Positions 38,161-56,127 of a DNA stretch of 64,000 nucleotides are shown piece by piece (within the stretch, counting starts at the first letter, position 1; the number at the start of each line of letters is the position of its first letter). The notes under the pieces are model-generated. The model was not told the DNA's origin and ran no database searches. It saw only the letters and a list, made by a program, of their open reading frames with translations. Source of the DNA: an uncultured Gemmatimonadales bacterium (GTDB lineage: Bacteria; Gemmatimonadota; Gemmatimonadetes; Gemmatimonadales; GWC2-71-9); assembly GCA_963796335.1 (NCBI GenBank), contig CAWCLG010000006.1, forward strand, positions 132,540 to 196,539. The letters are read 5' to 3'. The position numbers and the translations under genes are program-made.

Positions 38161-38162
38161 CC

Positions 38163-40255: not shown

Positions 40256-41446
40256 CCGGCCTCTATCGGTATCGCGCCGCCCGGGCGGACGGCGGCCTGG
40301 TGCGCGGCGAAGTGGAGGCCGCGACCAGTGCCCAGGCCGGCTCGCTGCTGGAGGAGCGGGGACTGTTTCCGCTCGCCGTCCAGCCGGTCTCGCGAGCGGA
40401 CCCCGCTCGGCGGAGCGCGCCCCGAGCCGAGCTCGCCGTGGTGTTCCGGAGCCTGGCCATGCTGACAGGGGCCGGCGTGCCTCTCGAGCGGGCGCTGAGC
40501 AGCAGCGAGTCGTTGGCCAAGGGTCCGCTGCGGTCCTGCCTCGCCGCCGGCCGCGTCGAGCTGCGAGCCGGGAAGAGTCTGGCTGACGCCCTCGACGGCG
40601 CGGGCGGAGTGATTCCGCGTGTCGCGCTCGGCGTGCTGCGGGCCGGTGAGCGCGCCGGACGGCTGGTGCCGGCACTGGAGCAGGTCGCCGTTCAGCTCGA
40701 GCGGGAAGCGGATCTGGCCGGCACCATCCGGCAGTCGATGGCCTATCCCGCGCTGCTGGCGACGACGGGAGTTGGCGTCGATGCTGGTCATCGGCGGTGT
40801 CGTGGTCCCCCGCTTCGCCGCGCTGCTCGCCGATCTGGGCCAGGATCTGCCTCCCGCCACCCGGCTGCTGCTCGCCGTCTCCGCCTTCGTCGGCCGCTAC
40901 TGGAGCGCGATCCTCGCCGCGGTCTGCCTGGTCCTATGGCTGGTGCTGACCTGGGCGCGGACGCCGGCGGGCCGGCTGAGTCTGCACGAATGGCTCCTCC
41001 GCTTGCCCGTGCTCGGTCCGATGCGCCACGGCCTCGCCACCGCGCGAGCCACCAGCGCGCTGGGCGGCGCGCTCGCGGCCGGGATGCCCATGCTGCCGGC
41101 GCTCGACGTCTCCGCCGGCGCCACCGGGGACGACGCGGTGACGCTGCGGCTGGCCGCGGCGCGGGAGCGGGTGACGAGAGGCGAGAGCCTGAGCCACGCC
41201 CTGAGTCGCGAGCGCGCCCTGACTCCCGCCGGACTCCAGTTGATCGAAGTCGGAGAGCAGAGCGCGCAGCTCGCCCTGATGGCGGGCCGTGCCTCGGACC
41301 TGTCGGGCCGGGACGCTGAGCGCCGGCTGCGGGCCCTCGCGAGCCTGTTGGAGCCGGCGCTGGTGGTCGCGCTCGGCGGGATGGTGGCCTTCACGGCCCT
41401 GGCGCTGCTCCAGGCGCTCTACGGCATCCGCCCAGGTGGCATGTGA
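40252..41446 (+). pseudogene. gspF: inner-membrane platform protein GspF; one frame break
   Basis: The first GspF repeat is in frame 1 up to ..MAYPALLATTGV. The continuation ASMLVIGGVVVPRFAALLADLGQDLPPAT... and the second repeat are in frame 2 (break ~40770-40782). GTG 40252 overlaps the gspG stop. Confidence 0.8.
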
Positions 41447-41715
41447 GCGGCACGACGCTGGTCGAGCTGATGGTGTCGCTGGCCATCCTGGGACTGCTGG
41501 CCGGATTGGCCGCGGCCTCGCTGGCGGGTGCGCCGGGGAGACCGCGGGGCGGGGAGGTCGCATTGGAAGCGGCGAGAGCCTCCGCCATCCGCTCGGCCCG
41601 GCGGGTCGCCTTCGTGGCGCCGGACGGCGGGAGGTTCCTGCTGCTGCCCGACGGCAGGGTCATCGGTCCCGGAATCGACCCGCTCACCGGCGAGGTGACG
41701 CATGTCCGGCAGTAG
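41443..41715 (+). CDS. minor pseudopilin (short, GspH position)
   Basis: GTG 41443 overlaps the gspF stop. Prepilin motif SG|TTLVELMVSLAILGLLAG with Glu+5. Confidence 0.65.
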   Translation: MSGTTLVELMVSLAILGLLAGLAAASLAGAPGRPRGGEVALEAARASAIRSARRVAFVAPDGGRFLLLPDGRVIGPGIDPLTGEVTHVRQ

Positions 41716-42052
41716 ACGCGGGGTCGCGCTGCTGGAGGCGATTCTGGCCGTCGCCATCCTCGCTGCCGCGGGCGCCGCCGCCGCGGAGCTCGCCGCGGCG
41801 GGACTTCGGGCCGAGGTCGAGTCCGGCGTCCGGGAGCGACAGCTGGCCGAGGCGAACAGGCTGCTCGCCGCGATGACCTTGCTGGGAAAGGCGGACTTGG
41901 ACCGGCGGCTGGGATGGCATCGGACCGGAAGGCTGGTCGTCGGGGTGCAGCGGCCGGCGAAGGGCCTGTATCGCATCGCGATCGCGTCCGCCGACATGCC
42001 AGAGCTGGAGACCCTGGTGACGGTGGTGCACAAGCCGGAGCCGATCCGATGA
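41702..42052 (+). CDS. minor pseudopilin (GspI position)
   Basis: RRG|VALLEAILAVAILAAAG prepilin-type N-terminus with Glu+5; 116 aa. Confidence 0.65.
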   Translation: MSGSRRGVALLEAILAVAILAAAGAAAAELAAAGLRAEVESGVRERQLAEANRLLAAMTLLGKADLDRRLGWHRTGRLVVGVQRPAKGLYRIAIASADMPELETLVTVVHKPEPIR

Positions 42053-42585
42053 GACCGCGGGTTCCCCGTGGCTTCACCCTGGTTGAAGTGTTGGTGGCGC
42101 TCGCCATCACCGCGCTGGTGACGCTGCTGGCCCATCAGCTCTTCGCCACGGTGGTCGACTCCGGCCACCGCGCCGTCGTGACCCGGCGGGCCCTCGATCG
42201 CGAGGCCAACGCGCGCCGTCTGCTCGGCGCGGCGTTTCTCTCCCTCGATGTCGGCAGCGACTCCACCGGCGGGTTCGTCGGGCGGCCGGACCGCGCGAGC
42301 TTCACCGCCTGGCTTCCGACGCCCGAGGGCTGGTCCGAGCTCCGGAAGGTCACCGTGGGATTCGAGGCCTCGGCGTGGGTGGCCCGGTGGGACGGCGAGC
42401 GAGTCCTGCTTGCGGACAGCGTCGAGGCGGTCGGGCTGGACTACCTGCTGGAGCCGGGCGTGCAGGCCGCCTGGGTGCAGGAGTGGATCTCGGCGGTCAG
42501 CGCCCCGCTGGCGGTTCGTGCCCGGGTGCGGCGGGCCGGCGGGCGGACCGACACGACGCTGTACCTGATCAAGGCCCGCGGATGA
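42049..42585 (+). CDS. minor pseudopilin (GspJ position)
   Basis: ATG 42049 overlaps the upstream stop (ATGA). PRG|FTLVEVLVALAITALV prepilin motif. Confidence 0.65.
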   Translation: MRPRVPRGFTLVEVLVALAITALVTLLAHQLFATVVDSGHRAVVTRRALDREANARRLLGAAFLSLDVGSDSTGGFVGRPDRASFTAWLPTPEGWSELRKVTVGFEASAWVARWDGERVLLADSVEAVGLDYLLEPGVQAAWVQEWISAVSAPLAVRARVRRAGGRTDTTLYLIKARG

Positions 42586-43430
42586 GACGGGGCGCCGCGC
42601 TGCTCACGGTCCTCTGGCTGGTGGTCGCATTGGCGGGAGCCGCCGGCGCGGCGCTCGCCGCCGTTCGCCTGGGAGCGAGCACCAGCCGGAACCGGGTGCT
42701 CCTCACCCGCGCCGACTGGGCGCGCGAAGCCTGCGCCGAGATCCTGCTGGGGCGGTACGCGGAGCAGAGGAAGGTGGGCGCCGTCTCCCGAACGGATCTC
42801 GGACGCGGTACCTGGTGCCGCCTCGAGATCGAAGACGCCGGCAACCGGCTCAATCTGGCGCATGCCACTCCGGAGATGATCAGGCTGCTGCTCCGCGACG
42901 ACAGCCTGTCCGATGCGCTGCTCGACTGGACCGATCTGGACGACGAGCCGCGGCCGTCGGGCGCCGAGGCGGAGTGGTATCGGAGCCGCTCGCGCCGGCC
43001 GCCCGGCAATCGGCCGCTGGCGGCGACGGCGGAGCTGGGCTACGTGCGCGGGTTCGACAGCTCGCGGGTGCGCGCGCTCGAGCGGCTGGTGACCACGCGC
43101 GGAGGGCCGACAGTCGACATCAACGTGGCGCCGCCCGAGGTGCTGGCGGTGCTGCCGGGCATGTCGCGGGAAGCCCTCGCCGACATCCTGGTCCAGCGAA
43201 GGCGCCGGATCGCATCGGCCGACGAGCTGCTCGCGCGGCTGGGACGCTCCGGCCGCGAGGGGCTCGTCGCCCGATATCAGGAGTTCACCGCGGTCGCGGG
43301 CTTCGGCGCCACTCGCTACGTGGTCCTGGCTGAGGGGGGCGTCGAGGGGACGCCGGTCACCAGCCGCGGCTGGCTCACGTTGGTTCCCGCCGACGGCCGG
43401 CTCGCGGTAGTCAGGCGCGAAGTCGAATGA
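42582..43430 (+). CDS. gspK: minor pseudopilin GspK
   Basis: ATGA overlap with the upstream stop. N-terminus MRRGAALLTVLWLVVAL lacks Glu+5, as is typical for GspK. NLNxA and helix-hairpin-helix-like region (INVAPPEVLAVLPGMS). Confidence 0.75.
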   Translation: MRRGAALLTVLWLVVALAGAAGAALAAVRLGASTSRNRVLLTRADWAREACAEILLGRYAEQRKVGAVSRTDLGRGTWCRLEIEDAGNRLNLAHATPEMIRLLLRDDSLSDALLDWTDLDDEPRPSGAEAEWYRSRSRRPPGNRPLAATAELGYVRGFDSSRVRALERLVTTRGGPTVDINVAPPEVLAVLPGMSREALADILVQRRRRIASADELLARLGRSGREGLVARYQEFTAVAGFGATRYVVLAEGGVEGTPVTSRGWLTLVPADGRLAVVRREVE

Positions 43431-44420
43431 GTCCGACGCTGCGGTTGACCGTGGGCGGCGGGCTCGCCCGGGCGGAGCTGCTGGGGCGGAAGGGCTGCCT
43501 CTGGGAAGCGGCGACGCCGTGCGAGACCCCGGCGGAGCTGCGCGAGGCCATCGGACACCTGGCCGGGGAGCCCGGCCTGCCGCGGCGGGGCGGACGCATG
43601 CGGGTGGTCGTGACGATGGGATCGCCCGTGGTTCAGGTGCGCTCGCTGCGAGGCCTTCCGCCGGTGCGGTCCTGCCGAGCTTCGAGCCCTGGTCGCGGCG
43701 CAGGCGGGCCGCTACTTCAGGCGCAACGGCAAACCGCTGGTGACCGATGCCGCCTGGCTCGGCAAAGGCGCCCGGCGCGAAGGTCACGCCACGGCCGTCG
43801 CGGTCGAGGAGCCGTGGATCGACGCCGTCCTCGACGGCGCGGCGGAAGCCGGACTCGAAGTCGGCGCCATCCATCCCGCGCTCGAGTCTGCGGGAAGCTC
43901 ACTGTCGCTGATCAGCGAGTCGGAGCGGGTGCGCCGGGATCGGCGGGGACGGCTGCTCGACCGGCGGCTGGCCGTGGCGGCTGCCGCCGTGTGGATCCTC
44001 TGCATCGGTGGCCTCTCGGCGCGGTTCGAACAACGGAGGAACACGGTCGAGGCGGAGATCGAGAAGCTGGCGGCCCCCTCGCAGGCCGTGGCCCGGGCTC
44101 GGCGGTCGCTGCACGATGCGTCCGCGACCGTCGCCGCGTTGGAGGAGGCGAGCCTCCAGCGCGGCGCGCTGCTGGATCGGATCGGGCGCATCGCGGCCGC
44201 GCTGCCCGACTCGGCCTACCTCGCGTCACTCACGGTGGACCTGGGGGGCAGCGGGTCGATGACGGGTGAGGCCCGCCATTCGTCCCAGGCGCTCGCTCGG
44301 CTGGAAGCGGAGGGCGCTGTCCTCGCACCCCGTCCCCTGGGTCCGGTCACCAGCGAGTCGGACGGCGGCCGGGTGTGGGAGCACTTCTCTATCGGCTTCG
44401 GCGCGGAGCCGGCGCGGTGA
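43427..44420 (+). pseudogene. GspL-like assembly protein (cytoplasmic PilM/GspL-like half, TM helix, PilN-like half); one frame break
   Basis: Frame 3 reads ..VVQVRSLRGLPPV. The continuation PAELRALVAAQAGRYFRRNGKPLVTDAAW... is in the next frame (break ~43660-43676). There is a single TM helix (LAVAAAAVWILCIGGL). Confidence 0.65.
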
Positions 44421-44983
44421 CGTCGCGCGACCGGCGTGCCGTCGTCTGGGGACTCGCGGTCGTGGCGCTCGCGGTGGTCTCGCTCCGGGTCGTGCCCTGG
44501 CTCGCCGGCCAGATCGAACGGAATCGTGAAGAGGCGATCTCCGACGTCGGCCGGCTGGCGAGAATGCGGGAGGAGATTGCCGGCGCGAAGGCGCTGGAGG
44601 ATTCCGCGGTCGCGGTGCGCGCCCGGATGGAGCTGCTCGCCGGAAGACTGCTCGTCGGGGACCGCGAGGCGGAGGCTCAGGCCGACCTGCGGTCGCGGGT
44701 CGAGGCCGCGATCTCCCGGAATCGGGTCCGGCTCCTGCGCATGGAGAGTCTGCCCGACTCGGCGGCCGCCGGATCGCTTCGAAGGGCCTCGGTCGGCGTC
44801 TCGATTCAGAGTGACAACAGCGGACTGCTGCGCTTCCTGGCGGCGCTGGCCGGCGATTCGGCGGCGGTCGTCGCCCGGCAGGCCAGCGTCATCGCGGCGA
44901 GCCCGCGGGCCGCGGCCGGACCGGAAGTCCTCGACGCCGAGGTGGTGGTGGGCGGCTGGTTCGCCGGGGGGAACGCGCCGTGA
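44417..44983 (+). CDS. GspM/PilO-like bitopic assembly protein
   Basis: GTG 44417 overlaps the upstream stop (GTGA). One N-terminal TM helix followed by a coiled-coil and ferredoxin-like periplasmic part. Confidence 0.55.
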   Translation: MTSRDRRAVVWGLAVVALAVVSLRVVPWLAGQIERNREEAISDVGRLARMREEIAGAKALEDSAVAVRARMELLAGRLLVGDREAEAQADLRSRVEAAISRNRVRLLRMESLPDSAAAGSLRRASVGVSIQSDNSGLLRFLAALAGDSAAVVARQASVIAASPRAAAGPEVLDAEVVVGGWFAGGNAP

Positions 44984-45441
44984 GGGCCGTCCTGCTGGTC
45001 GCGATCGCGGCGCCGCTGGCTGTGTCGGCCGTACTCCTGGCGGCACCCGTGATTCCCGATCCGGTGCTGCCGCCGCGTCGCGCCCTGCCTGCTCCTTCGA
45101 GACTTCCGGCCGAACCGACCGCCACGTCGCTGGAGCGCGGGCTCGCCCGGCCGCTGTTCCGTCGGACCCGCAAGCCGGCTCGACTCGCGTTCGATCCCGA
45201 CCGGGCGGCTGGGGAGGTCGCGATGGAGCCTTCGGCCCCGCGGCCCCAGCTCTCGCTGTCGGGAATCGTCTGGAGTCCCCGGCCGATCGCCGTGCTGGAG
45301 GGGCTGCCCAATATCACGGGCTCGACCGTGATGCGGACCGGGGATCGCACCGCGGGCGTGTGGGTGAAGCGGATCGGACGGGAGAGCGTCACGCTGGAAG
45401 GGTTCGACACCACCTGGGTGCTGAAGCTGAGGAATCCATGA
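44980..45441 (+). CDS. T2SS-associated bitopic protein (GspC/GspN/PilP position)
   Basis: GTGA overlap with the upstream stop. N-terminal TM helix, Pro-rich linker, and a small C-terminal beta domain (GVWVKRIGRESVTLEGFDTTWVLKL). Confidence 0.5.
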   Translation: MRAVLLVAIAAPLAVSAVLLAAPVIPDPVLPPRRALPAPSRLPAEPTATSLERGLARPLFRRTRKPARLAFDPDRAAGEVAMEPSAPRPQLSLSGIVWSPRPIAVLEGLPNITGSTVMRTGDRTAGVWVKRIGRESVTLEGFDTTWVLKLRNP

Positions 45442-46889
45442 ACCAGTACGGGAAGCTCGCGCTCGCGACCTGGCTGCTGGCCGGTCTGGCCCAGACCCCG
45501 GCGCGGGCCCAGGCGCCGGTGACGACCAATGGGGACAGCGTCCGGGTCCGATTCCTCGATACCGACCTCCGGGCGGTGATCCAGGCCGTCGGGAGTCACC
45601 TGCCCAAGCCGGTGATCGCGGGCGGGGTGCCCGAGGTCAAGGTCTCGCTGGAGACGCCGGAGCCGGTCAACCGCGAGACGCTCGCGACCCTGCTGGCGGG
45701 GCTGGTGAGGACCCACGGCCTCGAGTTCACCGAGGACTCCAGCTTCTTCCGCATCGGTCCCCCGAGTCCCGCCGCTGCTCCGGCGGCCGCGCAGCCGGCG
45801 GGCGGCGCCCAGGCGGCGAACGTGCGGCTCTTCGTGATCCGGCTCCGCCACGCACGCGCGTCGGACGTGGCCGCGACGGTGAACCTGCTGTTCGGCCGGG
45901 GAGGGGAGTTCACCGGGGCGACGGGGCTCTCGGGCGGTACGCTGGGGGACGAGCTGGCCCGGCCGGACATGCTGCCAGGCGGAGCGGTGCCGCAGCCGCC
46001 CGACTCGGGGAAGCCGCCCGGCGCCAACCTCACCGGCCCGGTCGCGATCGTGCCCGACCAGCTCACCAACTCGCTCCTGGTCCGCGCGGCCGAGGCCGAC
46101 TTCGCGGTGCTGCGCGAGGCGGTGACCCAGCTCGACATCCGTCCGCTCCAGGTGCTGATCGAGGTGCTGATCGTCGAGGCGAGGCACGACCGCCGGTTCT
46201 CCCTCGGCGCCGACCTGCTGGTGCCGCCGCAGGACATCGGCGACGGCACGATCGGGGGAACGATCACCGGCGGCGGGCTGGGCGACCTGGTGATCCGGCT
46301 GATGAACCTGGGCAAGGGCGACATTGACGCGGTGCTGCGGACGGCGCAATCGAAGGGCGACGTGGAGATCGTCTCGCGGCCGGTGCTGCTGGCGTCGAAC
46401 AACACCGAGGCCCGGTTCCTAGTGGGCTCGCAGCGGCCGTTCATCTCGGTGAGCCGCTCCCTCCCGACCGACAGTCCCTCGCGGGACCAGGTGGTGCAGT
46501 ATCTCGACGTGGGGACCAAGCTCAGGGTGCTGCCGACGATCAACCAGGACGGCTACGTCTCGCTGGTGGTGCAGCAGGAGATCAATGCCGCGACGGGAGA
46601 GACCCAGTTCGACGCGCCGGTGATCTCCACCCGGGAGGCATCGACCCAGGTGCTGGTGCGCGACGGACAGACGATCGTGATCGGCGGCTTGCGCGACCTG
46701 CAGCGGGACCGGAGCCAGTCGGGGGTGCCGGTGCTGTCGGGCATTCCGATCGTCGGCGGGCTGTTCGGGACCACCCGGCGGAGCAGCACGGCGACTGAGC
46801 TCTATCTGTTTCTGACGCCGCGGATCCTTCGCACCGACGAGGACGCCGCGAATGTGACCTCACCCCGGCTTCCGGATATCAAGCAATGA
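45438..46889 (+). CDS. gspD: secretin GspD
   Basis: ATGA overlap with the upstream stop. Signal peptide, N0/N1-like domains, and a secretin core (VLIEVLIVEA...VPVLSGIPIVGGLFG...ELYLFLTPRIL). Confidence 0.88.
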   Translation: MNQYGKLALATWLLAGLAQTPARAQAPVTTNGDSVRVRFLDTDLRAVIQAVGSHLPKPVIAGGVPEVKVSLETPEPVNRETLATLLAGLVRTHGLEFTEDSSFFRIGPPSPAAAPAAAQPAGGAQAANVRLFVIRLRHARASDVAATVNLLFGRGGEFTGATGLSGGTLGDELARPDMLPGGAVPQPPDSGKPPGANLTGPVAIVPDQLTNSLLVRAAEADFAVLREAVTQLDIRPLQVLIEVLIVEARHDRRFSLGADLLVPPQDIGDGTIGGTITGGGLGDLVIRLMNLGKGDIDAVLRTAQSKGDVEIVSRPVLLASNNTEARFLVGSQRPFISVSRSLPTDSPSRDQVVQYLDVGTKLRVLPTINQDGYVSLVVQQEINAATGETQFDAPVISTREASTQVLVRDGQTIVIGGLRDLQRDRSQSGVPVLSGIPIVGGLFGTTRRSSTATELYLFLTPRILRTDEDAANVTSPRLPDIKQ

Positions 46890-47845
46890 GCGCCGTCACC
46901 GAGGTACGCGCCACGGAAGTGATCGCGATTCCCCTGCTCATCGGATGCTCTCCCTCGATGCAGCTGGCCCGCAGCCGGGTGGAGCGGTTCGCCCGCAGCC
47001 GCCTTCCGATCCTGCTGGTGGGGCCGACCGGCACCGGGAAGGATCTGGTCGCCCGGCACCTGCACTGGGCCAGCGGCAGGGCGGGTGCGATGGTGGACGT
47101 GAACTGCGGCGCCCTCCCGCGCGACATGGTCGAGAGCCTGCTGTTTGGCCACCGGCGGGGAGCTTTCACCGGGGCCATCGAGAGCACCTTGGGGATGATC
47201 GCTCGGGCGGACCGGGGCACGCTTTTCCTGGACGAGTTGTCGAGCCTCCCGGTCGAAGGCCAGGCCAAGCTGCTGCGCGTGTTGGAGACGGGTGAGGTCT
47301 TGCCGCTGGGCGCGTCGACCAAGCAGGTGATCGACTTCCGGCTGGTCGCCGCCGCGCACGAGGACATCGCGGATCGCGTGGGCTCGGGGCTGTTCCGCCG
47401 GGATCTCTTTCACCGGGTGGCAGCGCTGCGGATCGACCTGCCGCCACTGGCCTCACGGCGAGAGGACATTGCCCTGCTCGCCCAGCACTTCGCATCGGCC
47501 CACGGGCGGATGATCGGGGAGGAGGGCATGGTGGTGCTGCGACAGGCGCACTGGCCCGGAAACGTACGCGAGCTGCGGGCGGTGGTGGATCGGGCGGTGC
47601 TGCTCTCCGACGCGCCCGTCCTCGACGCGCAGGTCCTGCTCGACGGCAGGGACCTCGGCCTCGCCGACGCGCTGCAGCGGGAGCCCGCGCGCGAGCTGCT
47701 GGAGCTGTGCCGGGTGCACGGGGGCCGCGCCGACACCATCGCCCAGGCACTGGGCGTCAGCCGGGCGACGCTATTCCGCCGACTCCGTGCGCTGGGGATC
47801 TCGCTGATGAGTCTCAGGGTCTCACGGAGTCTTGAGACTCGGTAA
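46886..47845 (+). CDS. receiver-less sigma54 enhancer-binding protein (AAA+ plus HTH), bEBP-2
   Basis: ATG 46886 overlaps the gspD stop (ATGA). Walker A GPTGTGKD, GAFTGA, LFLDEL, NVRELR, and the HTH IAQALGVSRATLFRRL; 319 aa with no sensory domain. Confidence 0.82.
   Translation: MSAVTEVRATEVIAIPLLIGCSPSMQLARSRVERFARSRLPILLVGPTGTGKDLVARHLHWASGRAGAMVDVNCGALPRDMVESLLFGHRRGAFTGAIESTLGMIARADRGTLFLDELSSLPVEGQAKLLRVLETGEVLPLGASTKQVIDFRLVAAAHEDIADRVGSGLFRRDLFHRVAALRIDLPPLASRREDIALLAQHFASAHGRMIGEEGMVVLRQAHWPGNVRELRAVVDRAVLLSDAPVLDAQVLLDGRDLGLADALQREPARELLELCRVHGGRADTIAQALGVSRATLFRRLRALGISLMSLRVSRSLETR
47809..47840. repeat. R1: 32 bp triple-GTCTCA element (copy 1), inside the 3' end of bEBP-2
   Basis: gagtctcagggtctcacggagtcttgagactc. 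27 of 32 positions are identical to R2, with identical 8 and 10 nt spacing of the three GTCT motifs. Confidence 0.85.
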
Positions 47846-47997
47846 GACCGTGGAGTTGCCGCGTTCAAGGATGGAGCCGTGGCAAACATCCGGGTGGAAA
47901 CCCATGCGCCTCGTGGCCTGCACGGTAACGTGCAGATCAAGAGGAAGGGTGGGGAGATCGTTAACAAGCATATCGATCCCTGAGCGTGGAGCCAGTT

Positions 47998-48363
47998 ATG
48001 CCTGAGTATACGATCAGCTTCGAGGTGAAAGAGGCTAACACCATCGAGCTGCCCAACCAACGGTACGCCGCGGGGCGATACCGCGTTGAGGCAGATGAGA
48101 AGGGTGGCGTGGATGTCTTCGGCAACCGAGAAGGCCTGCTTTATCTTGCCGAGGTCTTGGTGCGATGCGCACTAGGTGATCACAAGGCCGGATTCCACGT
48201 CCACATTCCCAGGAAGGGAGTGGTAAGCCTGGTGTATCTGGAGAACCCGAACTCACCGTCTACTCAGCCTCAACTGGTGTGGATGGCTAGCCTATCACAG
48301 AAGGCTTCGCTTGGGCGACCCAGGGGCGCTGCCTTCGGAACCGTGAGAGGGCGGCACTGGTGA
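47998..48363 (+). CDS. small cytoplasmic protein resembling polymorphic-toxin immunity proteins (Imm32-like by recollection, unverified)
   Basis: GGAG lies 6 nt before ATG 47998. The motif FGNREGLLYLAEVLVRCALGDHKAGFHVH fits this call. Sits in a low-GC context. Confidence 0.45.
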   Translation: MPEYTISFEVKEANTIELPNQRYAAGRYRVEADEKGGVDVFGNREGLLYLAEVLVRCALGDHKAGFHVHIPRKGVVSLVYLENPNSPSTQPQLVWMASLSQKASLGRPRGAAFGTVRGRHW

Positions 48364-48890
48364 GGAACGATCTGCGACAGCCAGAGCTTTCCTTGCGCCA
48401 AGGAGCTCTGCACCGCGTGAAGTACAAAAGTAGACTCTTCCGATTGCCAACAAGGGAGCCCGGCTAGCCGTGGCTGGGCTTTCTCACGCCCCGTTTGGTG
48501 TCCCCTGTGTGCGGAACAATCAGGGGCTGGAGTTGAGCCGACAGAAGGATGTGAGCGACCGATACGGAGAGACGCTGATCGCCCTTCTTGATCGCGAGTC
48601 GGTCTCCCTCTACGAGGGAACAAGCTTCACAGGAGAGGAGTCCCTGATCCACGCGAACGCGCTCTTCGCTTGGCTGACCAGCCCTCGATCTGGGAGCCTG
48701 CCGGACCTGCTGAACGTCACATCAGGGCAGCAGCAACCGGTTCAGGTGACCAAGAGTACAAGCGCAGCAAGGCCCCTTAAGTGAGGTGCTCGGTGGAGGG
48801 ACCGGCGAGACCAAGTCCCCCGTTCGACGTCGCGCGTGGAGGAGAGTGGTATTGACTTCTGGCTCCTGGTTCGACCCCTGAGGCGAAGGC

Positions 48891-49391
48891 ATGGGCAATG
48901 AGCCTGGACGGCCCATGGCAGACCGCTCGCCGCAGTCATTCGGCGGGCTCATTCGGGCCATTGGGATACTCGAAATCGTTGGCGGGGTTGCGGGGTGCGC
49001 CGCGGTCGCTTGGTTCTACGTGGGTGGCCATCAAGAGGCCATGCCAGGCGGCGATGTACAACTTGCGCTTCTGCCCTTTGGAACACTTACAACCGTCGGC
49101 TTCGCACTCCTGCGCGCACGCCAAGCGGGGCTTTGGGGTTCCCTTGTGCTGCAGCTCTCTCAAGCCCTGGCCTGGACGGCGGGAGAGACGATGTGGAGGT
49201 TCTCGGCTGGACCATTTCTATCTCTTACGCTTCTCAATGACACAACCTCGATCTTCGCTGGGTGGGACACGAGCTTCGGTTTTGGGCGCGTTCCCGAAAA
49301 CGCTCCTGGATCTGTTTCGTTGAATCTGATCCCGGTCTTTATTGCGTTAGCGCTGTGGCGACACCTGAGACGAGGCTTGCCGTCCTCGTAG
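48891..49391 (+). CDS. hypothetical four-TM membrane protein (possible orphan immunity protein)
   Basis: 166 aa ORF with four hydrophobic helices (LIRAIGILEIVGGVAGCAAVAWFYV, LALLPFGTLTTVGFALL, LWGSLVLQLSQALAW, LNLIPVFIALALW). Start uncertain (48891 or 48915). Confidence 0.4.
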   Translation: MGNEPGRPMADRSPQSFGGLIRAIGILEIVGGVAGCAAVAWFYVGGHQEAMPGGDVQLALLPFGTLTTVGFALLRARQAGLWGSLVLQLSQALAWTAGETMWRFSAGPFLSLTLLNDTTSIFAGWDTSFGFGRVPENAPGSVSLNLIPVFIALALWRHLRRGLPSS

Positions 49392-50007
49392 GCAAGACAC
49401 GTGTCACAGTGTAAGTAACTGAGTAGTCATAGGCCGGCCGACTATTTGGTGCGGTTATGAGGCCGAGATTGTAGGATAAACTTCTCCCCAAGAGACCGCC
49501 TCAAGGCTCGCATTCGCGGCACAATGCGATTTCTGGGGGCGAGCTTCTTCCGGAACGGCCATGTTTATTCGATGTGTTGTCTCGGAACGGGATAGTCGTT
49601 CTAACCAGCCTATGGGCATCTTCACGGCGCTCATAGGCTGGGGCGCGAAGGCAGGCTCGCACCCCATGAACTCGAATGGTTCCACAACACCGAACAGTGG
49701 TTCAACGAGCGATTGGAACGCCCGGATCAACTATCATGGTCGGGGCGGCCAGATGCACTGCCCCTCGCAATTACATGGCTAAGAATGTCGGCTGGCTAAC
49801 CTTCGATGTCGCTGAGGTCCGTAGGGCGTTGGCGGATGCCAAGATGCTCTCGTGGGGAGAGGTTATCCCGACATTCGGATCTAGGTCGCTGAGTTCGGGT
49901 GTGGATCGTTCCAATGGCCGTATGCCTTCGGAGTCGCCTTCATACCAGAGCATTGTATGGACGTGAGAACGTGGTCTTTCTGGATGTGGGGCGCAATAGC
50001 ACTGGTC

Positions 50008-50112
50008 TTTACTTCATCGTCTTGTGAGCAGTGAGCCGCCAGGGATCAATAGCCGTAGGCAGCTCGCCTCGGATGTCTTTGCGTTTCATCCTCGTCCCCC
50101 AATTCAGGGATC
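50008..50112. repeat. X1: about 100 bp direct repeat, copy upstream of the HExxH gene
   Basis: Aligns by eye with 50872-50967 at roughly three quarters identity (cttgtga.cagtg...taggc.gctcgc.tcggat...ttcatc.tcgtccc...ttcag.g.tctc). Confidence 0.6.
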
Positions 50113-50168
50113 TCCTTCTCGAATGAGCACGCGAGCCCTTAGAGCCGCCGCCTGCAAGAGGCCATAGA

Positions 50169-50807
50169 GTGGTTGTCAACCTATCCAAGGTGTCGTATTC
50201 GGTCGTGTCTTGGGTTCGGGTACCGCTGCGATGGGCACTGCTGAATACCCTATTCCTCTTGTCGTCCAAGACGGTGATTGGGGGCATCGAAGTCATCGAT
50301 GTGGCCGAAGTGGATGTCGATCAAACTCTGCGTCGGCTTCGCGAAGCGCTAGACGTCATAAGGCGGACCGACGTCCGTCGTTATGAGCGCATGAGACGAG
50401 ACCTGCGGCGCATTGTCCTCATGAAGGCGGGTGTGCCTCAATTTGCATCCGAGGTAGGCGCATGCCTCATCAGGAGTGCTTATGTACGGGAGAAATCTGC
50501 CGAGGCAGTAGCCACAACGTTGGTACACGAGGCTGTGCACGCCCGTATTCATCGCCGTGGCGTAGGATATGGGCCTGGCCTGCGCATTCGCGTGGAGGAA
50601 GTCTGTGTCAAGCAGCAGATCGACTTCGCAAGGGCCCTGGGGAACCCTGAGATACTCAGTCATCTGACACAGGTGCTGAAGGCGCCGCTATGGGTGCTAG
50701 CACTGCAACACGAGGACACCATCGCAGCCCTGCGGAGTTTAGGAGTGCCGGAATGGATGCTTCGCCTGTATGACAAAGTCGCCTTCGCCATGCGACGCCA
50801 TACCTAG
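50169..50807 (+). CDS. hypothetical HExxH-motif protein (putative zinc metallopeptidase fold)
   Basis: 212 aa ORF (GTG start) with TLVHEAVHARIHRRG. No signal peptide and no recognised family. Low GC. Confidence 0.45.
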   Translation: MVVNLSKVSYSVVSWVRVPLRWALLNTLFLLSSKTVIGGIEVIDVAEVDVDQTLRRLREALDVIRRTDVRRYERMRRDLRRIVLMKAGVPQFASEVGACLIRSAYVREKSAEAVATTLVHEAVHARIHRRGVGYGPGLRIRVEEVCVKQQIDFARALGNPEILSHLTQVLKAPLWVLALQHEDTIAALRSLGVPEWMLRLYDKVAFAMRRHT

Positions 50808-50871
50808 GCAGCGCTGACGGCCTTGGCGTCCTCACACAGGAGGGCCCCGGCGCGCAACATGCCCGTTCGTA

Positions 50872-50967
50872 GTTGCTTCGTATCTTGTGAACAGTGGCAG
50901 GATCCGCAGTCCTAGGCGGCTCGCTCGGATCCCTTTCTCTTCATCTTCGTCCCTGCTTCAGAGTCTC
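50872..50967. repeat. X2: about 100 bp direct repeat, copy downstream of the HExxH gene, abutting R2
   Basis: See X1. Its 3' end runs into the triple-GTCTCA element. Confidence 0.6.
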
Positions 50968-50992
50968 AAAGTCTCACGTAGTCTCAAGACTC
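50961..50992. promoter_or_regulatory. R2: 32 bp triple-GTCTCA element (copy 2), candidate UAS for the rhs promoter
   Basis: gagtctcaaagtctcacgtagtctcaagactc ends in the palindrome AGTCTcaAGACT. Centred about 97 bp upstream of the -24 GG. Confidence 0.45.
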
Positions 50993-51071
50993 CATGAGAC
51001 GGTCGCACGATCCGGTCATCCTCCCCGCCTCCAAAAACTGTTGAAACCAATGACTTAGGTGCCCAGCCCTG

Positions 51072-51088: not shown

Positions 51089-51121
51089 CTCCCCTTCAGC
51101 ATCCCCGCTCCGGAGAGCCAT

Positions 51122-54100
51122 GTGTTCCGCACCGCCCACCGCTGCGCTGCCGCGCGGCTTCTGTTCGTCGCCCTCGCCACGCTCCTGCTCACGTCCGGTC
51201 CCGCTGCTGCGCAGTTCAGCACTCAGGCCCTAGGCGGCCTCGAGATTACTCCGGACTCGTCCACAATGATCGTGGCCCCGAATACGAACGGTCACCAGAT
51301 CGAGTTCCTCGCGCGCAATGAGCTGCTGACCACAGGAACCTGGTCATTCAGCTGCGTCGCGACGGGCAACGTGAGCTGTGTCTCCTTCCCCTCCGGGGCT
51401 ACCTACCCTTCGGGTGGAGGCGGTGAGCTGCTCGTCACCTTCAACGCGACGGCTGGTGGCACCGGCCGCATCACGTTGACGGCCTCCCCGGGAGGAGAAA
51501 CCGGCTCGGTCATCGTCGACATCGCCGAGCCGGGTGCGCCGGCCGTCACGCTGCAGAACCACAACCGGGACAACGTCGACCGTTCGATGTGCCTGACCGC
51601 GGGGGCCGGTGACGGTGCCGCGTGGAGCTGTGGCGACCTGGTGATCACTCACGCGATGCCGACCTACACCACGATGAACAAGGGACGGAACCTCACGCTG
51701 ATCCACAATTCGGCGACGACGCATCCGATGCCGCCGATCGCCGCGGTCATCAATCAGACCGGGCGCACGATCATGCAGGGCATCAGGGCGCAGGTATGGG
51801 TGGGCGCCACGCCGGTCCTACTTCGCTCAGTGGTGTATGACCCGTGGTCCACCGGGGTCGGCAGCTCCAGGCAAGTGGTGGTCGACTTCAATGCGGACAC
51901 GTTCTCGACCGGCGCCTATCCCATGGAGTTTCGAGTCGAGAACGTGTACCCAACGCTGCCGCCCTTTATCACGACGGTGAAGGACACCTTGCTGATCGTC
52001 AATCGAACCCGCAGCGAACTGGGGGCGGGTTTCGGAATCGCCGGCGTGGAGCAACTCTTCCTCAATCAGCCGGTGGGCACCGCACTGGGCCATCTGATGT
52101 GGGTCGGCGGGGACGGGTCGGCCAAGCTCTACCGGAAACTCAACGCCACGACATGGGTCGGGCCACTGGGCGGGTTCCAGGATACCATCTCGTTTGCATC
52201 CTCGAAGTACACCCGCACCATGAAGGGTGGTACCAAGGTCGAGTTCGATGCTACCGGCCGCCACACCGCGACCATCAACCGTGCTGGACAGACCACCACC
52301 TTCACCTGGACATCGACCCCGTCGGGTCCGCGCCTGACCGGCATAGCCGTGCCGCCGACGACGCAGGGCGGATCGTACACACTGGTCTATGAGACCACAG
52401 GCAGCCGCCTGCTCGATCTGATCCGCGACCCCGCGAACCGCACCCTGAACCTCACGATGGCGGATGGTCGCCCTACGATACTGATCGATCCTGACAATCT
52501 TCAAACCGAGTTCGGGTGGGACGTCACCAACCGGCGGATCACCTCACGCAAGAATCGGAAGGGTTGGACTACTCGCTACGAGTACTCCAAGGGCCTCGCC
52601 TGGGGCAGCAGAGTGACGAAGGTGACTGCCCCGATCGGCCGTACCGTCGATACAGAAACGGCTGCCACCGTGTTCGAGCCCTGGAACGACAAGGGGCTGG
52701 GTATTGCACCAACCAACCAGGATGCCGTCGTCGTTGCTCAGGTGGAGACTCGCATCCTCGGCCCGCGAGCGGGCGTCAACGACAATGCGGATTTCCTGGT
52801 CAACAAATGGGGTGCGCCCACCAGGGCAGAGAATGCGATCGGGGCGGTGACCACGTACGCCCGTTCCAGCGCCTCATTCCCGGCCTTGATCACGAGGATC
52901 ACCCATCCGAACGGCAGGATCACCGATCAGACCTACAACAACCGGGGCAACCTCACCAAGGTCAGGGACGATGTGAACCCGATCACGGGTGATCCCCAGA
53001 CTCGGGTGACGGTGTACGAATATCCTAGCTCCGGTCTCAACCGCGACTACCCCACCGCCGTCTGGGACTCACTCGCCTCGCCGACCAGGACCGAGTACGT
53101 CTACAACTCCATGGGCTTGCCCGACACCGTGCGCTCACCCGGCGGGCACCGCACCGGGTTCACCTACAAGACCAGCGGCGCGCTGAAGGGGCTGATGATC
53201 CGCAGCACGGAGGTCAGCGTCGAAACCTGGGAGGAAACCGCCACGGCGCAGGATACCGACTTCCAGTGGCGGAACCACGAGCGGCGCTTCGACTACGATG
53301 CCAAGGGCAACCTGCAGGCCGACACGTCAGCCGTCGGTGCCGTGACGTCGTTCAGTCGCGACGCCATGGGGCGGGTGACCAACGTTTACGACCCGCTCAA
53401 GACCAGGATCGAGCGGGTCTACGACCCGATGGATCGCGTGACCCAGACGAAGCACTATACCACGACGACGGCACATCCGATCGTCACCAACCCCCTGGCG
53501 GGCTGTATCGCCAATCAGGCGGTCTGCTCCGACAATACGGTGGCATGGGATCCACTGCCGAACCCGGTGAACACGACCTACAATCATGGAGCCATGAATC
53601 TCGAGTCGGTTCTGGATCCCCGATCGGTGCCCCGCACCTACGTGTACGACACGCGGGGACTCGTGATCGAGGAGAAGGACGATTACAACAAGTCCCGCCT
53701 GGCCTTCTATAACGAGGCCGGTCTGATCACGTCCTCCCGGTCCCGCACCAACCGTGAGGTCCGCTTCTACTACGACGCCGCAGGCCGGCGGACCGCCATG
53801 GCCTATGGCGCGGTGCCGAGTCCGGTGCCGGGTTCGGGGGCAAGCGTTCCGGGCGACAGCATCCGGTACACGTACGACAACATGGACAATCTGCTGACTG
53901 TCACGAACCGAGAGGGAACTATAACTCGCACGTACATGCGAAACGGGCTGGTCAAGCAGAAGACCATGAATTTTGTCGGCACGATTCCAAATGACGTCGT
54001 CACCTATGTGTACGATCGTGACGGCGTACTTCGGACTGCGACCCGCGGCTCGGACGTCGTGACATACAACTATCAGGCGGCGACCAGGAACCTCAGCACC

Positions 54101-55774
54101 ATGGTTGTCCAGCTAGGTGCCCCGGCCAGCATCACTCGGACCTTTACGTTCGACTGGGACTCGCTCGGCCGGACCCGCCGGATCACTTATCCCACCAACG
54201 CGTCCCACCCTCTGACCGTGGACTACCGGTACGACAGGGCGGGAATTCTCCGGCGCCTGGTGTCCAAGCAGACCGGTGCCGCCAGTACCATTCTGAACTT
54301 CACCTATCGCAACGTCGCGGTAGATCCCATCGGACGCATCATCCGCGACAGCCTGACCTGCTCGCCGAGCTCGGCTCCCGGTCCGTGCGAGGGCACGACC
54401 CCGATCCGGGTGGCGAACTCATACAGCCGGATGGGAGCCCTGCTGAGACAGGAGTATCGGCGCGGAGGGAGCCGGCAGGTCGATTCGATGAGCTATGACG
54501 CGTCGGGAAACATGAAGTTTCGGGTCCAGGAGGATCTTGGGCACATCCACACGTTCACGCTGGATGCCGGCGCGCACAACCGGCTGGCCAGCTTCGTACG
54601 CTCGGAGCTCGGCAATACCTCCCGTGCAATCACGTACAACCTTGATGGCGCTCGTCTGCGCGAAGTACGGGACCCTTGGAACGAAAACGTCCCCGAGGAG
54701 CGATACTACCACTATGATGGCCTCGGGCGCATGAGCGGCACGGGTGAATACCTCTTGGTCGGTAGCTCGTGGCAGTTCTCGGATCGGGAGACCGCATGCC
54801 AGTACGATGGCGACGGGCAAATGATCGGGCCGTGTGATAACGGGTCCCATTTCCTGCTGTTTGACGGGGACAATACGACTGGCACCACTGATGCCAATTC
54901 GCATGGCTGGCGGTTCTTCCACGCCCCAGGAATCGATTCACCGCTGCTGGGATACCTCCGCGGACCCAGCAACCGCCTCTACCTGTGGGTGACCGACGGC
55001 AGGGGCCGAGAGTTTGCTGTGGCGGACACGCTAGGGCGGCGGAATTCGTCGGAGGACGGGATTAGCCAGCTAGGTGACTGGCGATATGCTGGTGGCACAA
55101 AGGCCTCGAACAGCTTTGATGCTGACCGCTTCGGTTCGCCTCAGGCGCCGAAGCTGTCGTTCTTCCGGAACCGAGCGTATGATCAGGAGACCGGGCGGTG
55201 GACCCAGGAAGACCCGATAGGATTGGCTGGTGGGGTCAATCTCTATCAGTTCAATGGGAACGATCCAGCCTCTTATACCGATCCTTTCGGGCTATGTGTT
55301 CCTTGGTGCACGGCGTTGATCGGTGCAGCGGTCGGTGGGGGTGGCGCAGCAATCGCAACGCTGGCCTACAACGCGATGAACGACCGTCCGTTGGGCGAGA
55401 ACGTGGGACGCAATGCTCTCGTCGGCGGGGCTGCCGGTGGAGCCATCGGGCTCGGAGTTGGACTCTTCAGCGGAGCGGGAGCCGCTGTGGCGACTGGTGC
55501 GGCTCCGGTGGTAGGCAAGGGTACTGAACGTCTGATAGGCATGCTCGAGCAAGCCGGTCCCTCGATGGATGCAAGAATCAGGGCGGTTAGTGAGTATCTA
55601 CCGGCCGGCCAGAAAGCGGTGATGACCGCTCTTGAAGGTGGCTCCCGAATGCTGTCGGGGGGAGCAGGCTCCCGAGCTACTCAGGTAATCCTTAACGGCG
55701 ATGGAAGTACAATCGTGAAGAAGTTCAATACGGCAAAGGAAGCCTTTGAGGTGGTTAAGGAGATTAGGCCGTGA
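51122..55774 (+). CDS. Rhs/YD-repeat polymorphic toxin with Sec-type signal peptide and unrecognised C-terminal domain
   Basis: Many YD repeats (YxYDxxGxL) and a core ending in DPIGLAGGVNLYQFNGNDPASYTDPFGL. Start set at GTG 51122 (SD GGAGAG 5 nt upstream), giving the signal peptide FRTAHRCAAARLLFVALATLLLTSGPAAA|Q. The longest ORF starts at 51059. Confidence 0.88.
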   Translation: MFRTAHRCAAARLLFVALATLLLTSGPAAAQFSTQALGGLEITPDSSTMIVAPNTNGHQIEFLARNELLTTGTWSFSCVATGNVSCVSFPSGATYPSGGGGELLVTFNATAGGTGRITLTASPGGETGSVIVDIAEPGAPAVTLQNHNRDNVDRSMCLTAGAGDGAAWSCGDLVITHAMPTYTTMNKGRNLTLIHNSATTHPMPPIAAVINQTGRTIMQGIRAQVWVGATPVLLRSVVYDPWSTGVGSSRQVVVDFNADTFSTGAYPMEFRVENVYPTLPPFITTVKDTLLIVNRTRSELGAGFGIAGVEQLFLNQPVGTALGHLMWVGGDGSAKLYRKLNATTWVGPLGGFQDTISFASSKYTRTMKGGTKVEFDATGRHTATINRAGQTTTFTWTSTPSGPRLTGIAVPPTTQGGSYTLVYETTGSRLLDLIRDPANRTLNLTMADGRPTILIDPDNLQTEFGWDVTNRRITSRKNRKGWTTRYEYSKGLAWGSRVTKVTAPIGRTVDTETAATVFEPWNDKGLGIAPTNQDAVVVAQVETRILGPRAGVNDNADFLVNKWGAPTRAENAIGAVTTYARSSASFPALITRITHPNGRITDQTYNNRGNLTKVRDDVNPITGDPQTRVTVYEYPSSGLNRDYPTAVWDSLASPTRTEYVYNSMGLPDTVRSPGGHRTGFTYKTSGALKGLMIRSTEVSVETWEETATAQDTDFQWRNHERRFDYDAKGNLQADTSAVGAVTSFSRDAMGRVTNVYDPLKTRIERVYDPMDRVTQTKHYTTTTAHPIVTNPLAGCIANQAVCSDNTVAWDPLPNPVNTTYNHGAMNLESVLDPRSVPRTYVYDTRGLVIEEKDDYNKSRLAFYNEAGLITSSRSRTNREVRFYYDAAGRRTAMAYGAVPSPVPGSGASVPGDSIRYTYDNMDNLLTVTNREGTITRTYMRNGLVKQKTMNFVGTIPNDVVTYVYDRDGVLRTATRGSDVVTYNYQAATRNLSTMVVQLGAPASITRTFTFDWDSLGRTRRITYPTNASHPLTVDYRYDRAGILRRLVSKQTGAASTILNFTYRNVAVDPIGRIIRDSLTCSPSSAPGPCEGTTPIRVANSYSRMGALLRQEYRRGGSRQVDSMSYDASGNMKFRVQEDLGHIHTFTLDAGAHNRLASFVRSELGNTSRAITYNLDGARLREVRDPWNENVPEERYYHYDGLGRMSGTGEYLLVGSSWQFSDRETACQYDGDGQMIGPCDNGSHFLLFDGDNTTGTTDANSHGWRFFHAPGIDSPLLGYLRGPSNRLYLWVTDGRGREFAVADTLGRRNSSEDGISQLGDWRYAGGTKASNSFDADRFGSPQAPKLSFFRNRAYDQETGRWTQEDPIGLAGGVNLYQFNGNDPASYTDPFGLCVPWCTALIGAAVGGGGAAIATLAYNAMNDRPLGENVGRNALVGGAAGGAIGLGVGLFSGAGAAVATGAAPVVGKGTERLIGMLEQAGPSMDARIRAVSEYLPAGQKAVMTALEGGSRMLSGGAGSRATQVILNGDGSTIVKKFNTAKEAFEVVKEIRP

Positions 55775-56127
55775 CCAAGCATGCAGGGCACTCGCACGAG
55801 CGTGCCAGAGCCATCTGGAGATTCGCGGAGTCGGAAGAGGATGGCGAGACGTGGCTTCGTAATCCAGCCTTGTTACAAGGCTACGTTGATTACGAATCTC
55901 GTAGTGATGATGGTAATAGAATCTGGCGAAGAATTATGGTGGTGACCAAAGGCTGGCTGGAAAGCCAAGTTCAAAGCGTGCGCAAGGGAACTACTTCCCC
56001 TCTTTGGATTGCACTGCCGGCCTTGGTTGTCCTACCGGACGCGACTGGAGAAGAACTAAAAGCTGCGGTAGACGCGGTAATCGGACAGGGCGGCCTGGAC
56101 CCCTACTCGACGGCCCTATCCACTTAA
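55771..56127 (+). CDS. candidate cognate immunity protein
   Basis: GTG 55771 overlaps the rhs stop (GTGA), with AAGGAG 7 nt upstream. 118 aa. This is the lowest-GC stretch of the locus. Call is based on position only. Confidence 0.5.
   Translation: MTKHAGHSHERARAIWRFAESEEDGETWLRNPALLQGYVDYESRSDDGNRIWRRIMVVTKGWLESQVQSVRKGTTSPLWIALPALVVLPDATGEELKAAVDAVIGQGGLDPYSTALST

Follow-up and report, generated by a model that had tools for sequence, protein, structure and literature searches.

Paired GTCTCA elements beside an rhs gene of a Gemmatimonadales bacterium: a predicted sigma-54 enhancer and its probable orphaned copy

We describe two GTCTCA-rich elements, R1 and R2, which bracket 3.1 kb of DNA upstream of an rhs toxin gene in an uncultured Gemmatimonadales bacterium (GenBank assembly GCA_963796335.1, contig CAWCLG010000006.1, positions 132,540 to 196,539; this stretch of 64,000 nucleotides is hereafter called the window). 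We consider it likely that R2 is the upstream activating sequence (UAS), or enhancer, of a sigma-54 promoter of rhs and is bound by bEBP-2, a sigma-54 activator (bacterial enhancer-binding protein) whose gene ends in R1, and that R1 is an orphaned copy behind an insertion of decaying immunity genes. An enhancer of a sigma-54 promoter is a well-known and ordinary kind of element. The motif itself, the activator subfamily and the module in which two such activators flank gsp genes and are followed by rhs appear undescribed, no description of them having been found in the literature searched. The locus offers a testable circuit from a little-studied phylum, with a sensor-less activator, a predicted site (consensus GTCTCA-N2-GTCTCA-N4-GTCTYRAGAC-N4-TGAGAC-N2-TGAGAC) and an Rhs toxin target at a type II secretion-like cluster. 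It also gives a snapshot of toxin-locus turnover, in which an apparently intact toxin unit adjoins an enhancer that has probably been orphaned and immunity genes in decay.

R1 and R2 are identical at 27 of 32 positions and have the internal spacing that the initial annotation ascribed to them, and R1 does fall within the last 12 codons of bEBP-2 (Table 1). The same annotation took the element to be 32 bp long with a terminal palindrome; its spacing is correct, but its extent is not. Similarity continues about ten bases rightward (R1 ...CGGTAAGACCGT, R2 ...CCATGAGACGGT), so that the unit measures approximately 43-45 bp, is quasi-palindromic, and has the palindrome at the centre of a larger symmetric site. 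R1 and R2 represent the left half and the centre of GTCTCA-N2-GTCTCA-N4-GTCTYRAGAC-N4-TGAGAC(-N2-TGAGAC), with right arms that are partly degenerate (one TGAGAC is kept in R2, and R1 has TAAGAC). The central dinucleotides, TG in R1 and CA in R2, are reverse complements, and the pair was also scored as an inverted repeat of 30 nt with 87% complementarity. A pattern scan of the window with GTCTCA-N2-GTCTCA-N4-GTCTYRAGACTC, allowing up to three mismatches, returned R1 and R2 only, and no match occurred in 100 shuffles used as a control. The 64 kb contain eight GTCTCA hexamers, five of which belong to R1 or R2. The R1-block-R2 arrangement is not an artefact of one assembly, since window positions 47267-52011, which include R1, the intervening block, R2 and the 5' end of rhs, recur with 100% identity in an independent Logan unitig (L039, run ERR11592904). 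In another Logan sample (ERR11593888), a unitig equal to window 46257-47842 (L002) breaks off precisely at the right-hand edge of R1, 3 nt short of the stop codon of bEBP-2, and a further unitig (L040) begins at 49633 with 7 mismatches. These ends may reflect strain heterogeneity right after R1, or merely low coverage.

One basis for identifying R2 as an enhancer is its distance from a predicted promoter. Sites were accepted as sigma-54 promoters if they had GG-N10-GC and agreed with TGGCACG-N4-TTGCW at nine or more of 12 positions. One such site, with three mismatches to this consensus, separates R2 from rhs, and 92 bp lie between the centre of R2 and its -24 GG. In seven related loci, each with a comparable cluster of hexamers, the corresponding distances are 91 bp (L027), 88 bp (L026), 81 bp (L030), 85 bp (L033), 92 bp (L005), 89 bp (L014) and 87 bp (L017). 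A spacing of 81-92 bp is therefore held in eight of eight independent rhs loci, against a background of 0.25 such sites per kb and strand. The seven other loci have GGCACG-N4-yTGC sites at the position that matches the window promoter, and 3' of the promoter there is a conserved 'catcccc..GGAG' leader followed by a GTG start. The regions downstream of the cluster are significantly alike among the loci (z of 3-8; 6.4 for R2 against L030). In the window, a ribosome-binding site, GGAGAG, is present at 51112-51117 ahead of GTG 51122, which alignment with the relatives makes the probable true start of rhs, although the open reading frame (ORF) is also open from 51059. On sequence, R2 thus has the attributes of a sigma-54 enhancer, namely a site with GG and GC at a 10-nt gap within about 70-150 bp, dyad half-sites that could accommodate several activator dimers, and co-conservation, and R2, the predicted promoter and rhs make up what looks to be an intact unit. 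R1 lacks such a site.

Further copies, which the initial annotation had suggested looking for, were sought in genomes and metagenomes. The scan of 185,579 genomes, one per species and evidently not including the source genome, was made with GTCTCA-N2-GTCTCA-N4-GTCT-N2-AGAC (20 specified bases) and gave a single match, the one instance away from rhs, GAGTCTCAccGTCTCAacctGTCTTGAGACTC, on contig VGWI01000024.1 of a metagenome-assembled genome (MAG) labelled Lentisphaerae (L001). This match also agrees at six flanking and central bases that the pattern does not demand, and a near-consensus promoter, TGGCACGcacgATGCA (11 of 12), stands 136 bp downstream of it. The region (4117-4283 of L001) holds the left half plus the centre of the motif, with an OmpA-like gene on one side and a gene for a DEAD-box helicase on the other, and homologues of rhs and bEBP-2 are absent from the 10 kb available. 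The scan of metagenomes returned 21 contigs. The complete palindrome GTCTCA-N2-GTCTCA-N4-GTCTYRAGAC-N4-TGAGAC-N2-TGAGAC is found in high-GC contigs (L008/L017/L021 and L014), and L005 carries a variant of it. Contigs L003 and L004 (viral), L011, L015, L018, L020 and L024 were set aside as unrelated or chance matches, being tandem 9-mers or AT-rich contigs with other spacing.

The hexamer cluster is thus known from eight independent related loci, the window included, which are probably all Gemmatimonadota, and it is sited either at the bEBP-2 3' end or ahead of an Rhs gene. It is at the 3' end of the bEBP-2 orthologue in L005 and L027 and between bEBP-2 and rhs in L026, L030 and L033. In L005, a secretin gene is followed by the gene for a 322-aa bEBP-2 homologue with the motif in its 3' end. 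In L014, some 115 bp separate the motif from a downstream Rhs-like ORF (tblastn E=2.5e-23), and in L017/L021 about 100 bp separate it from a downstream, truncated ORF matching the Rhs N-terminus (E=4e-5). Every locus has three to five GTCTCA/TGAGAC hexamers within 28-63 bp, arranged differently from locus to locus, and one cluster holds nearly all the hexamers of a locus (five of six in 13 kb of L030 and five of six in 17 kb of L033). R1 agrees with the copies of L027 and L017 at 29 of 32 positions each, and R2 with that of L017 at 28 of 32. The similarity of R1 to R2 therefore does not exceed that of either element to copies from other organisms, which means that binding-site constraint explains their likeness and that a recent duplication is not needed. 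Of the suggestion that the element is a regulator's site (perhaps that of bEBP-2) with one copy duplicated, the first part is upheld by the comparison, with binding itself predicted, and the second is not. Arrays of GTCTCA with other spacings were also seen in lower-GC metagenome contigs (L009 4282-4380, L016 264-378, L022 1152-1192 and L025 2889-2929). One of these is symmetric, GTCTCA-N3-GTCTCA-N3-GTCTATAGAC-N3-GAGAC-N3-GAGAC, and they may be related operators in other phyla.

These distributions bear on the notion that R is a dispersed short repeat, akin to a repetitive extragenic palindrome (REP) or a miniature inverted-repeat transposable element (MITE), which brackets the block by chance. 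R is palindromic like REP elements, and copies outside the 64 kb are possible. Nevertheless, there are two copies only within the 64 kb, the relatives have one cluster per locus and always at the bEBP-2/rhs junction, the distance to the sigma-54 promoter is fixed, and 185,579 species genomes hold one match. We regard this explanation as hardly credible. The initial annotation had named, as findings that would speak against it, a common dispersed motif with no positional link to sigma-54 promoters and relatives with the same 3.1 kb lacking flanking repeats. What was found is a motif tied to such promoters and relatives without the 3.1 kb.

We infer that bEBP-2 is the protein that binds the cluster because of their adjacency in six lineages, where the cluster directly abuts the 3' end of the bEBP-2 orthologue or falls within it, because of a conserved and distinct helix-turn-helix (HTH), and because of the peptides at the end of the protein. 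bEBP-2 matches Pfam Sigma54_activat (E=2.9e-54) and AAA_lid_14, has an intact AAA+ domain with the Walker A motif GPTGTGKD and the GAFTGA loop, and has a weak C-terminal HTH match. Its relatives in the PDB are NtrC-family proteins, ZraR, FleQ and PspF, and its closest named homologues come from Gemmatimonadales MAGs. The HTH sequence SRATLFRRL is invariant among bEBP-2 orthologues, and bEBP-1, the activator at the other end of the gsp genes, has SRTHIYRLL. The protein ends in MSLRVSRSLETR, of which R1 encodes the last 12 codons; the orthologue of the closest relative, L027, ends in VSLRVSQSLETR, and R1 is orthologous in position to the L027 copy. In the post-HTH tails of 98 bEBP-2 homologues, the dipeptide VS is enriched 4-fold and S[HQ] 18-fold, with such signatures in 43 of the 98, and both are GTCTCA read in different frames. 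The hexamer DNA is kept while the reading frame varies, which argues that selection acts on the DNA. By this comparison, many bEBP-2-type ORFs commonly appear to read through their own enhancer, so for annotation purposes the last 12 or so codons of many such activator genes would be enhancer sequence translated in frames that differ by lineage. Homologue C-termini (among P0001-P0120) include SLRVSRSLETR, ISKSHEVS..LETS and SHQSHESH, and the window has ...RVSRSLETR.

It is hypothesized that bEBP-2, which lacks a receiver domain and is encoded immediately upstream, assembles on the cluster of GTCTCA/TGAGAC half-sites, which comprises two copies in direct orientation, a palindrome, GTCT-YR-AGAC, at the centre, and one or two copies in inverted orientation. 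From there it would contact sigma-54 RNA polymerase about 90 bp downstream, open the promoter by ATP hydrolysis, and so switch on the Rhs toxin of the adjacent type II secretion-like cluster.

Gene order in relatives indicates what the locus looked like earlier. Five lineages whose bEBP-2 is 55-73% identical to that of the window have bEBP-1, gspE-G-F...gspD, bEBP-2, Rhs and small ORFs in this order, with an Rhs of 1,540-1,750 aa that begins 50-190 bp after bEBP-2. The order bEBP-2, R, rhs that the initial annotation wished to see checked in related genomes is therefore real, and the direct succession of bEBP-2 and Rhs in five relatives makes the 3.1-kb block of the window lineage-specific. 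L026, L027, L030 and L033 each have a single cluster between the two genes. The comparison shows the ancestral order to have been gspD, bEBP-2, UAS (often over the last bEBP-2 codons), sigma-54 promoter, rhs and immunity gene. It had been proposed that the block was inserted or recombined between the R copies; rhs was indeed once adjacent to bEBP-2 according to the synteny, and no sign was found of recombination between the copies that made or removed the block. On the P0006 contig (JGI 3300056388), 650 bp with a 110-aa reverse ORF lie between bEBP-2 and the next large ORF, and the bEBP-2 tail reads SLGSLRVSRGLETR, which places the enhancer inside the ORF. Here, too, the enhancer may be separated from rhs. 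The whole module, from bEBP-1 through gspE to the secretin, bEBP-2, a signal-peptide Rhs and small ORFs, spans 36901-56127 of the window and occurs in at least five related lineages (among them L026, L030, L033 and the P0003 contig). A type II secretion-like machine tied to Rhs with two sigma-54 activators may constitute an undescribed route of Rhs export.

The order of events that we consider most likely, and the simplest, is as follows. A second unit of UAS, promoter, rhs and immunity gene would have been acquired or exchanged downstream of a resident unit. Loss of the resident promoter and rhs would have followed, with R1 and the earlier immunity genes remaining in place. R1 would then be the copy at the ancestral position beside bEBP-2, deprived of its promoter and toxin gene. 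The window Rhs is closer to that of L033 (46% identity) than to that of L027 (37%), whereas its bEBP-2 is closer to that of L027 (73%) than to that of L033 (55%), and the present rhs unit was thus probably exchanged.

Several observations weigh against this account. The R copies were counted in the 64-kb window, and the source genome may have further copies elsewhere. The sigma-54 consensus scan taken by itself shows no enrichment, with 62 sites in the window where 82 were expected, so the promoter call rests on conserved position. What links bEBP-2 to R is adjacency and co-conservation only, and on the short contigs L014, L017 and L001 no bEBP-2 orthologue is visible, the activators nearby being about 40% identical. 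The sequence after R1 yielded no trace of a lost rhs or promoter, which makes the loss of a resident rhs conjecture; a tblastn search of the block for rhs remnants with five Rhs proteins and the fragments of contig L035 was likewise negative. The breakpoints of homology coincide with the UAS edges on both sides, which random deletion does not predict. Finally, R1 is nearly perfect, which is unexpected of a site long dead unless the event was recent or R1 still has a role.

The last point raises the alternative that R1 still works, either by activating the rhs promoter from 3.2 kb through looping together with R2 or by driving an unrecognised promoter in the block; it might also serve as a decoy. 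NtrC-type enhancers can act from kilobase distances. R1 is as well kept as the functional copies (29 of 32 to L027 and L017), and the block ORFs, bEBP-2 and rhs are all on the same strand; in the version with a block promoter, toxin and immunity genes would answer to one activator. A string TGCACG-N6-TGCA at 47919-47934, about 87 bp from the centre of R1, was considered as a relic or active promoter and rejected, as it lacks the essential GG and its spacing is off by one. No GG-N10-GC site of at least nine of 12 exists within 200 bp downstream of R1 or in the block, and scans of 47600-51300 for sigma-70 promoters and terminators gave nothing above background. The downstream flank of R1 is not significantly similar to eight canonical regulatory regions in local alignments, the best of which reaches a z of 2.9 and includes part of the UAS. 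A putative relic 5' untranslated region, 'atccctgagcgtGGAGCC' before ATG 47998, was also rejected as unproven. Two frameshifted genes in the block argue against selection for its expression, and the preservation of R1 may reflect a recent rearrangement. We judge a working R1 unlikely.

The coincidence of breakpoints with the edges of R, in turn, suits the alternative that R1 and R2 are attL/attR-like (attachment-site) junction repeats. In that case, a cassette would have integrated at a single ancestral R, either site-specifically or by homology-facilitated capture, with the YR (pyrimidine-purine) core as the crossover. Relatives have one copy at the 'empty' site where the window has two bracketing extra DNA, as the enhancer reading predicts likewise; homology stops at the R edges on both sides; and the central TG and CA are reverse complements. 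Polyimmunity loci have also been reported to adjoin Xer-type recombinases (PMC3482391). Against this, integrases, transposases and other recombinases are absent in and beside the block: no such domain was found by Pfam or NCBIfam in ORFs of 47846-50960, and the flanking genes are bEBP-2 and rhs. The copies are 84% identical and no closer to each other than to copies of other genera, whereas near-identity would be expected of junctions that arose together. R is conserved over the same length as distant orthologous enhancers are among themselves, so constraint explains its sharp edges. Two block genes are frameshifted, no similarity to plasmids or phages was found, and no other contig has two separated copies. 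Junction repeats seem to us quite improbable. A mobile-element origin of the block was rejected more generally, given that recombinase domains, plasmid or phage similarity and flanking repeats other than R are all lacking; there was no Rfam match in the block either. A candidate bEBP-2 3' remnant upstream of R2 was similarly discarded. R2 read in frame gives SLKVSRSLKTP and a stop, which resembles the tail encoded by R1, but BLASTP of the translation upstream of it against the bEBP-2 C-terminus returned nothing, and DNA alignment found no similarity to the left of GAGTCTCA.

A more speculative idea, to which we give little credence, is that the enhancer palindrome doubles as a boundary for swapping toxin modules (enhancer, sigma-54 promoter, rhs and immunity gene) between genomes. 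Recombination in or at the edge of the site of about 45 bp would explain the breakpoints at the R edges, the affinity of the Rhs protein with that of a distant rather than the nearest relative, and the presence of old immunity genes between two enhancers. If this were true, a transcription factor binding site would also be a portable 'handle' for the exchange of Rhs toxins at a type II secretion-like machine in Gemmatimonadota.

We also weighed whether R acts as an RNA hairpin, R1 terminating or stabilising the gsp-bEBP-2 transcript and R2 forming a 5' structure near rhs. R1 folds at -22.2 kcal/mol (z=-3.0), and the L030 cluster at -34.5 kcal/mol (z=-4.8) with a terminator-like U run after it. 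R2 and the L033 cluster, on the other hand, fold no better than shuffles (z of about -1), no U-tract follows R1 or R2, and the terminator scan found none there. Being upstream of the predicted transcription start, R2 would fall outside the rhs mRNA. The hexamer sequence is conserved across loci while arrangement and pairing partners change, which is the pattern of a protein site, and an Rfam match is absent. This explanation is very unlikely in our estimation.

The positions of the elements and of the genes around them are given in Table 1.

Table 1. Elements and genes of the R1/R2 locus in window coordinates
Feature	Position	Strand	Description
bEBP-1	36901..37824	+	Sigma-54 activator without a receiver domain, the first of two, heading the gsp cluster; shares about 40% identity with bEBP-2
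gsp operon, gspE to secretin gspD	38326..46889	+	Type II secretion-like; secretin Pfam matches; gene order matches relatives
bEBP-2	46886..47845	+	319-aa sigma-54 activator with AAA+, lid and C-terminal HTH and without a sensor domain
R1	47809-47840 (extended 47809..47853)	none	GAGTCTCAGGGTCTCACGGAGTCTTGAGACTC; putative enhancer (UAS) copy
Imm32-family gene	47998..48287 (ORF to 48363, 121 aa)	+	Pfam Imm32 E=1.5e-5, below the curated cut-off
o104	48470..48784	+	Homologue of L035 ORF 2745-3083, which directly follows an Rhs C-terminal toxin ORF
o166	48891..49391	+	Hydrophobic 166-aa ORF; no significant Pfam or NCBIfam match; appears intact
o212	50169..50807	+	Conserved 212-aa protein with an HExxH motif; appears intact
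R2	50961-50992 (extended 50961..51002)	none	GAGTCTCAAAGTCTCACGTAGTCTCAAGACTC; putative enhancer (UAS) copy
Sigma-54 promoter (predicted)	51073-51088	+	CGGCATGgtcaCTGCT; GG 51074-75, GC 51086-87
rhs toxin gene	51122..55774	+	RHS repeats, Rhs-associated core, signal peptide, glycine-rich hydrophobic C-terminal tip
118-aa ORF	55771..56127	+	Overlaps the rhs stop codon; GC 0.549; end of the low-GC tract

The block between R1 and R2 is best described, judging by its sequence, as a partly decayed set of orphan genes, accessory to a polymorphic toxin locus, of which at least two are decaying. All its ORFs are on the plus strand. The Imm32-family ORF has 21 homologues, most of them with PF15566, and intact members of the family have about 96-100 aa. 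The last 22 residues of the homologues, which are about 98 aa long, match another frame at 48219-48287 with 82% identity (tblastn), so the predicted gene is frameshifted near 48219-48228 and has a wrong-frame tail to 48363. For o104, tblastn with the L035 homologue gave matches in two frames, at 48569-48649 and 48649-48771 (E=3.6e-16), which places a predicted frameshift at approximately 48649. By its location after an Rhs tip, that homologue holds the position of an immunity gene. Both frameshifts are identical in the independent unitig L039. o166 is possibly a membrane immunity protein. o212 has ten homologues at 54-65% identity and a weak mod_HExxH match below cut-off, and its L035 homologue (8001-8618) is directly upstream of an orphan rhs-like ORF (8696-9493). 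Positions 1-9500 of L035 (Ga0613193_131994) make up a degenerate locus in which a bEBP-2 fragment (516-1169) adjoins a 482-aa Rhs C-terminal ORF, with the o104 homologue, an IS110 transposase, many small ORFs, the o212 homologue and the orphan rhs fragment also present; no GTCTCA cluster was found in these 9500 positions. On contig L041 (2-4362), another gspE-G-F operon is directly preceded by two 118-aa ORFs and a homologue of Imm32 with 74% identity across the first 77 residues, which indicates that Imm32 genes recur beside type II secretion-like clusters.

The initial annotation called the block visibly lower in GC than the gsp operon, and so it is (0.585 against 0.722 for the gsp/bEBP stretch), but the tract is not limited to the interval between R1 and R2. 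It runs past R2 through rhs (0.625) to the end of the 118-aa ORF. The rhs genes of all relatives examined likewise have less GC than their gsp genes, and so low GC by itself is no sign that the 3.1 kb is foreign.

The predicted circuit has partial counterparts among known systems. Like PspF at pspA, and HrpR/HrpS, bEBP-2 is a sensor-less activator comprising only AAA+ and a C-terminal HTH, and it would bind repeated or dyad sites some 80-130 bp upstream of a -24/-12 promoter beside its own gene. The likeness rests on the shared AAA+ domain; bEBP-2 would act on a toxin gene, the last codons of such activators commonly coincide with the enhancer, and no PspA-like negative regulator was identified. 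To our knowledge, the GTCTCA half-site and the five-site arrangement are not those of any known activator. VasH of Vibrio and Sfa-type regulators are analogous in that a sigma-54 activator encoded inside a secretion cluster activates that cluster's own effector or toxin genes. In contrast to these, the machine here is type II secretion-like rather than type VI, both ends of the gsp operon have an activator of their own, and the target is a signal-peptide Rhs. The NtrC enhancers at glnAp2 likewise present several dyad activator sites as a platform for an AAA+ ring that reaches the sigma-54 polymerase through looping. Their sequence is different, bEBP-2 has no receiver domain for phosphorylation, and action of R1 from 3.2 kb is a possibility only.

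Zhang et al. 2012 (PMC3482391) described polyimmunity loci as well as Rhs loci in which orphan toxin tips and immunity genes have been displaced. The block resembles them in having small same-strand ORFs beside a polymorphic toxin gene, including one of the recognised family Imm32 and o104, whose homologue elsewhere comes after an Rhs tip, and in its lower GC and content that varies between strains. It differs from them in that the orphans are upstream of a full-length rhs, between the activator gene and the enhancer, when classically they are downstream; moreover, there are no orphan toxin tips, two genes are frameshifted, and the array is bracketed by two enhancers, as predicted here.

The Rhs protein matches Pfam RHS_repeat (E=6.6e-22) and Rhs_assc_core (TIGR03696, E=2.1e-14). 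Past the DPIGL...PFGL end of the core, its tip (55300-55774) is glycine-rich and hydrophobic (AVGGGGAAIATL...GGAAGGAIGLGVGLFSGAGAAVATGAA), which suggests a membrane-inserting or pore-forming toxin; no family match to the tip was found. The 118-aa ORF, for which Pfam and NCBIfam have no match, is presumed from its position only to be the cognate immunity gene. A UvrD-exonuclease fusion is also encoded downstream of bEBP-2, as is rhs.

At the other end of the gsp operon, the ORF in the bEBP-1 position of relatives has Sigma54_activat and HTH_8 matches. ATG 38326 is the probable start of gspE, and a sigma-54-like site, CGGCACGtcgtCTGCC, occurs shortly before it at 38276-38291. The interval between bEBP-1 and gspE (37828-38291) forms a long inverted structure around a central hairpin (37905-38005). 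It contains tandem 8-mers, (GGCGGACA/GGCGGGCA)n at 37828-37900 and (CCTGTCCG)n at about 38010-38140, with GTAAC/GTTAC palindromes 3' of them at 38165-38210, and it may comprise the bEBP-1 enhancer and the gsp promoter.

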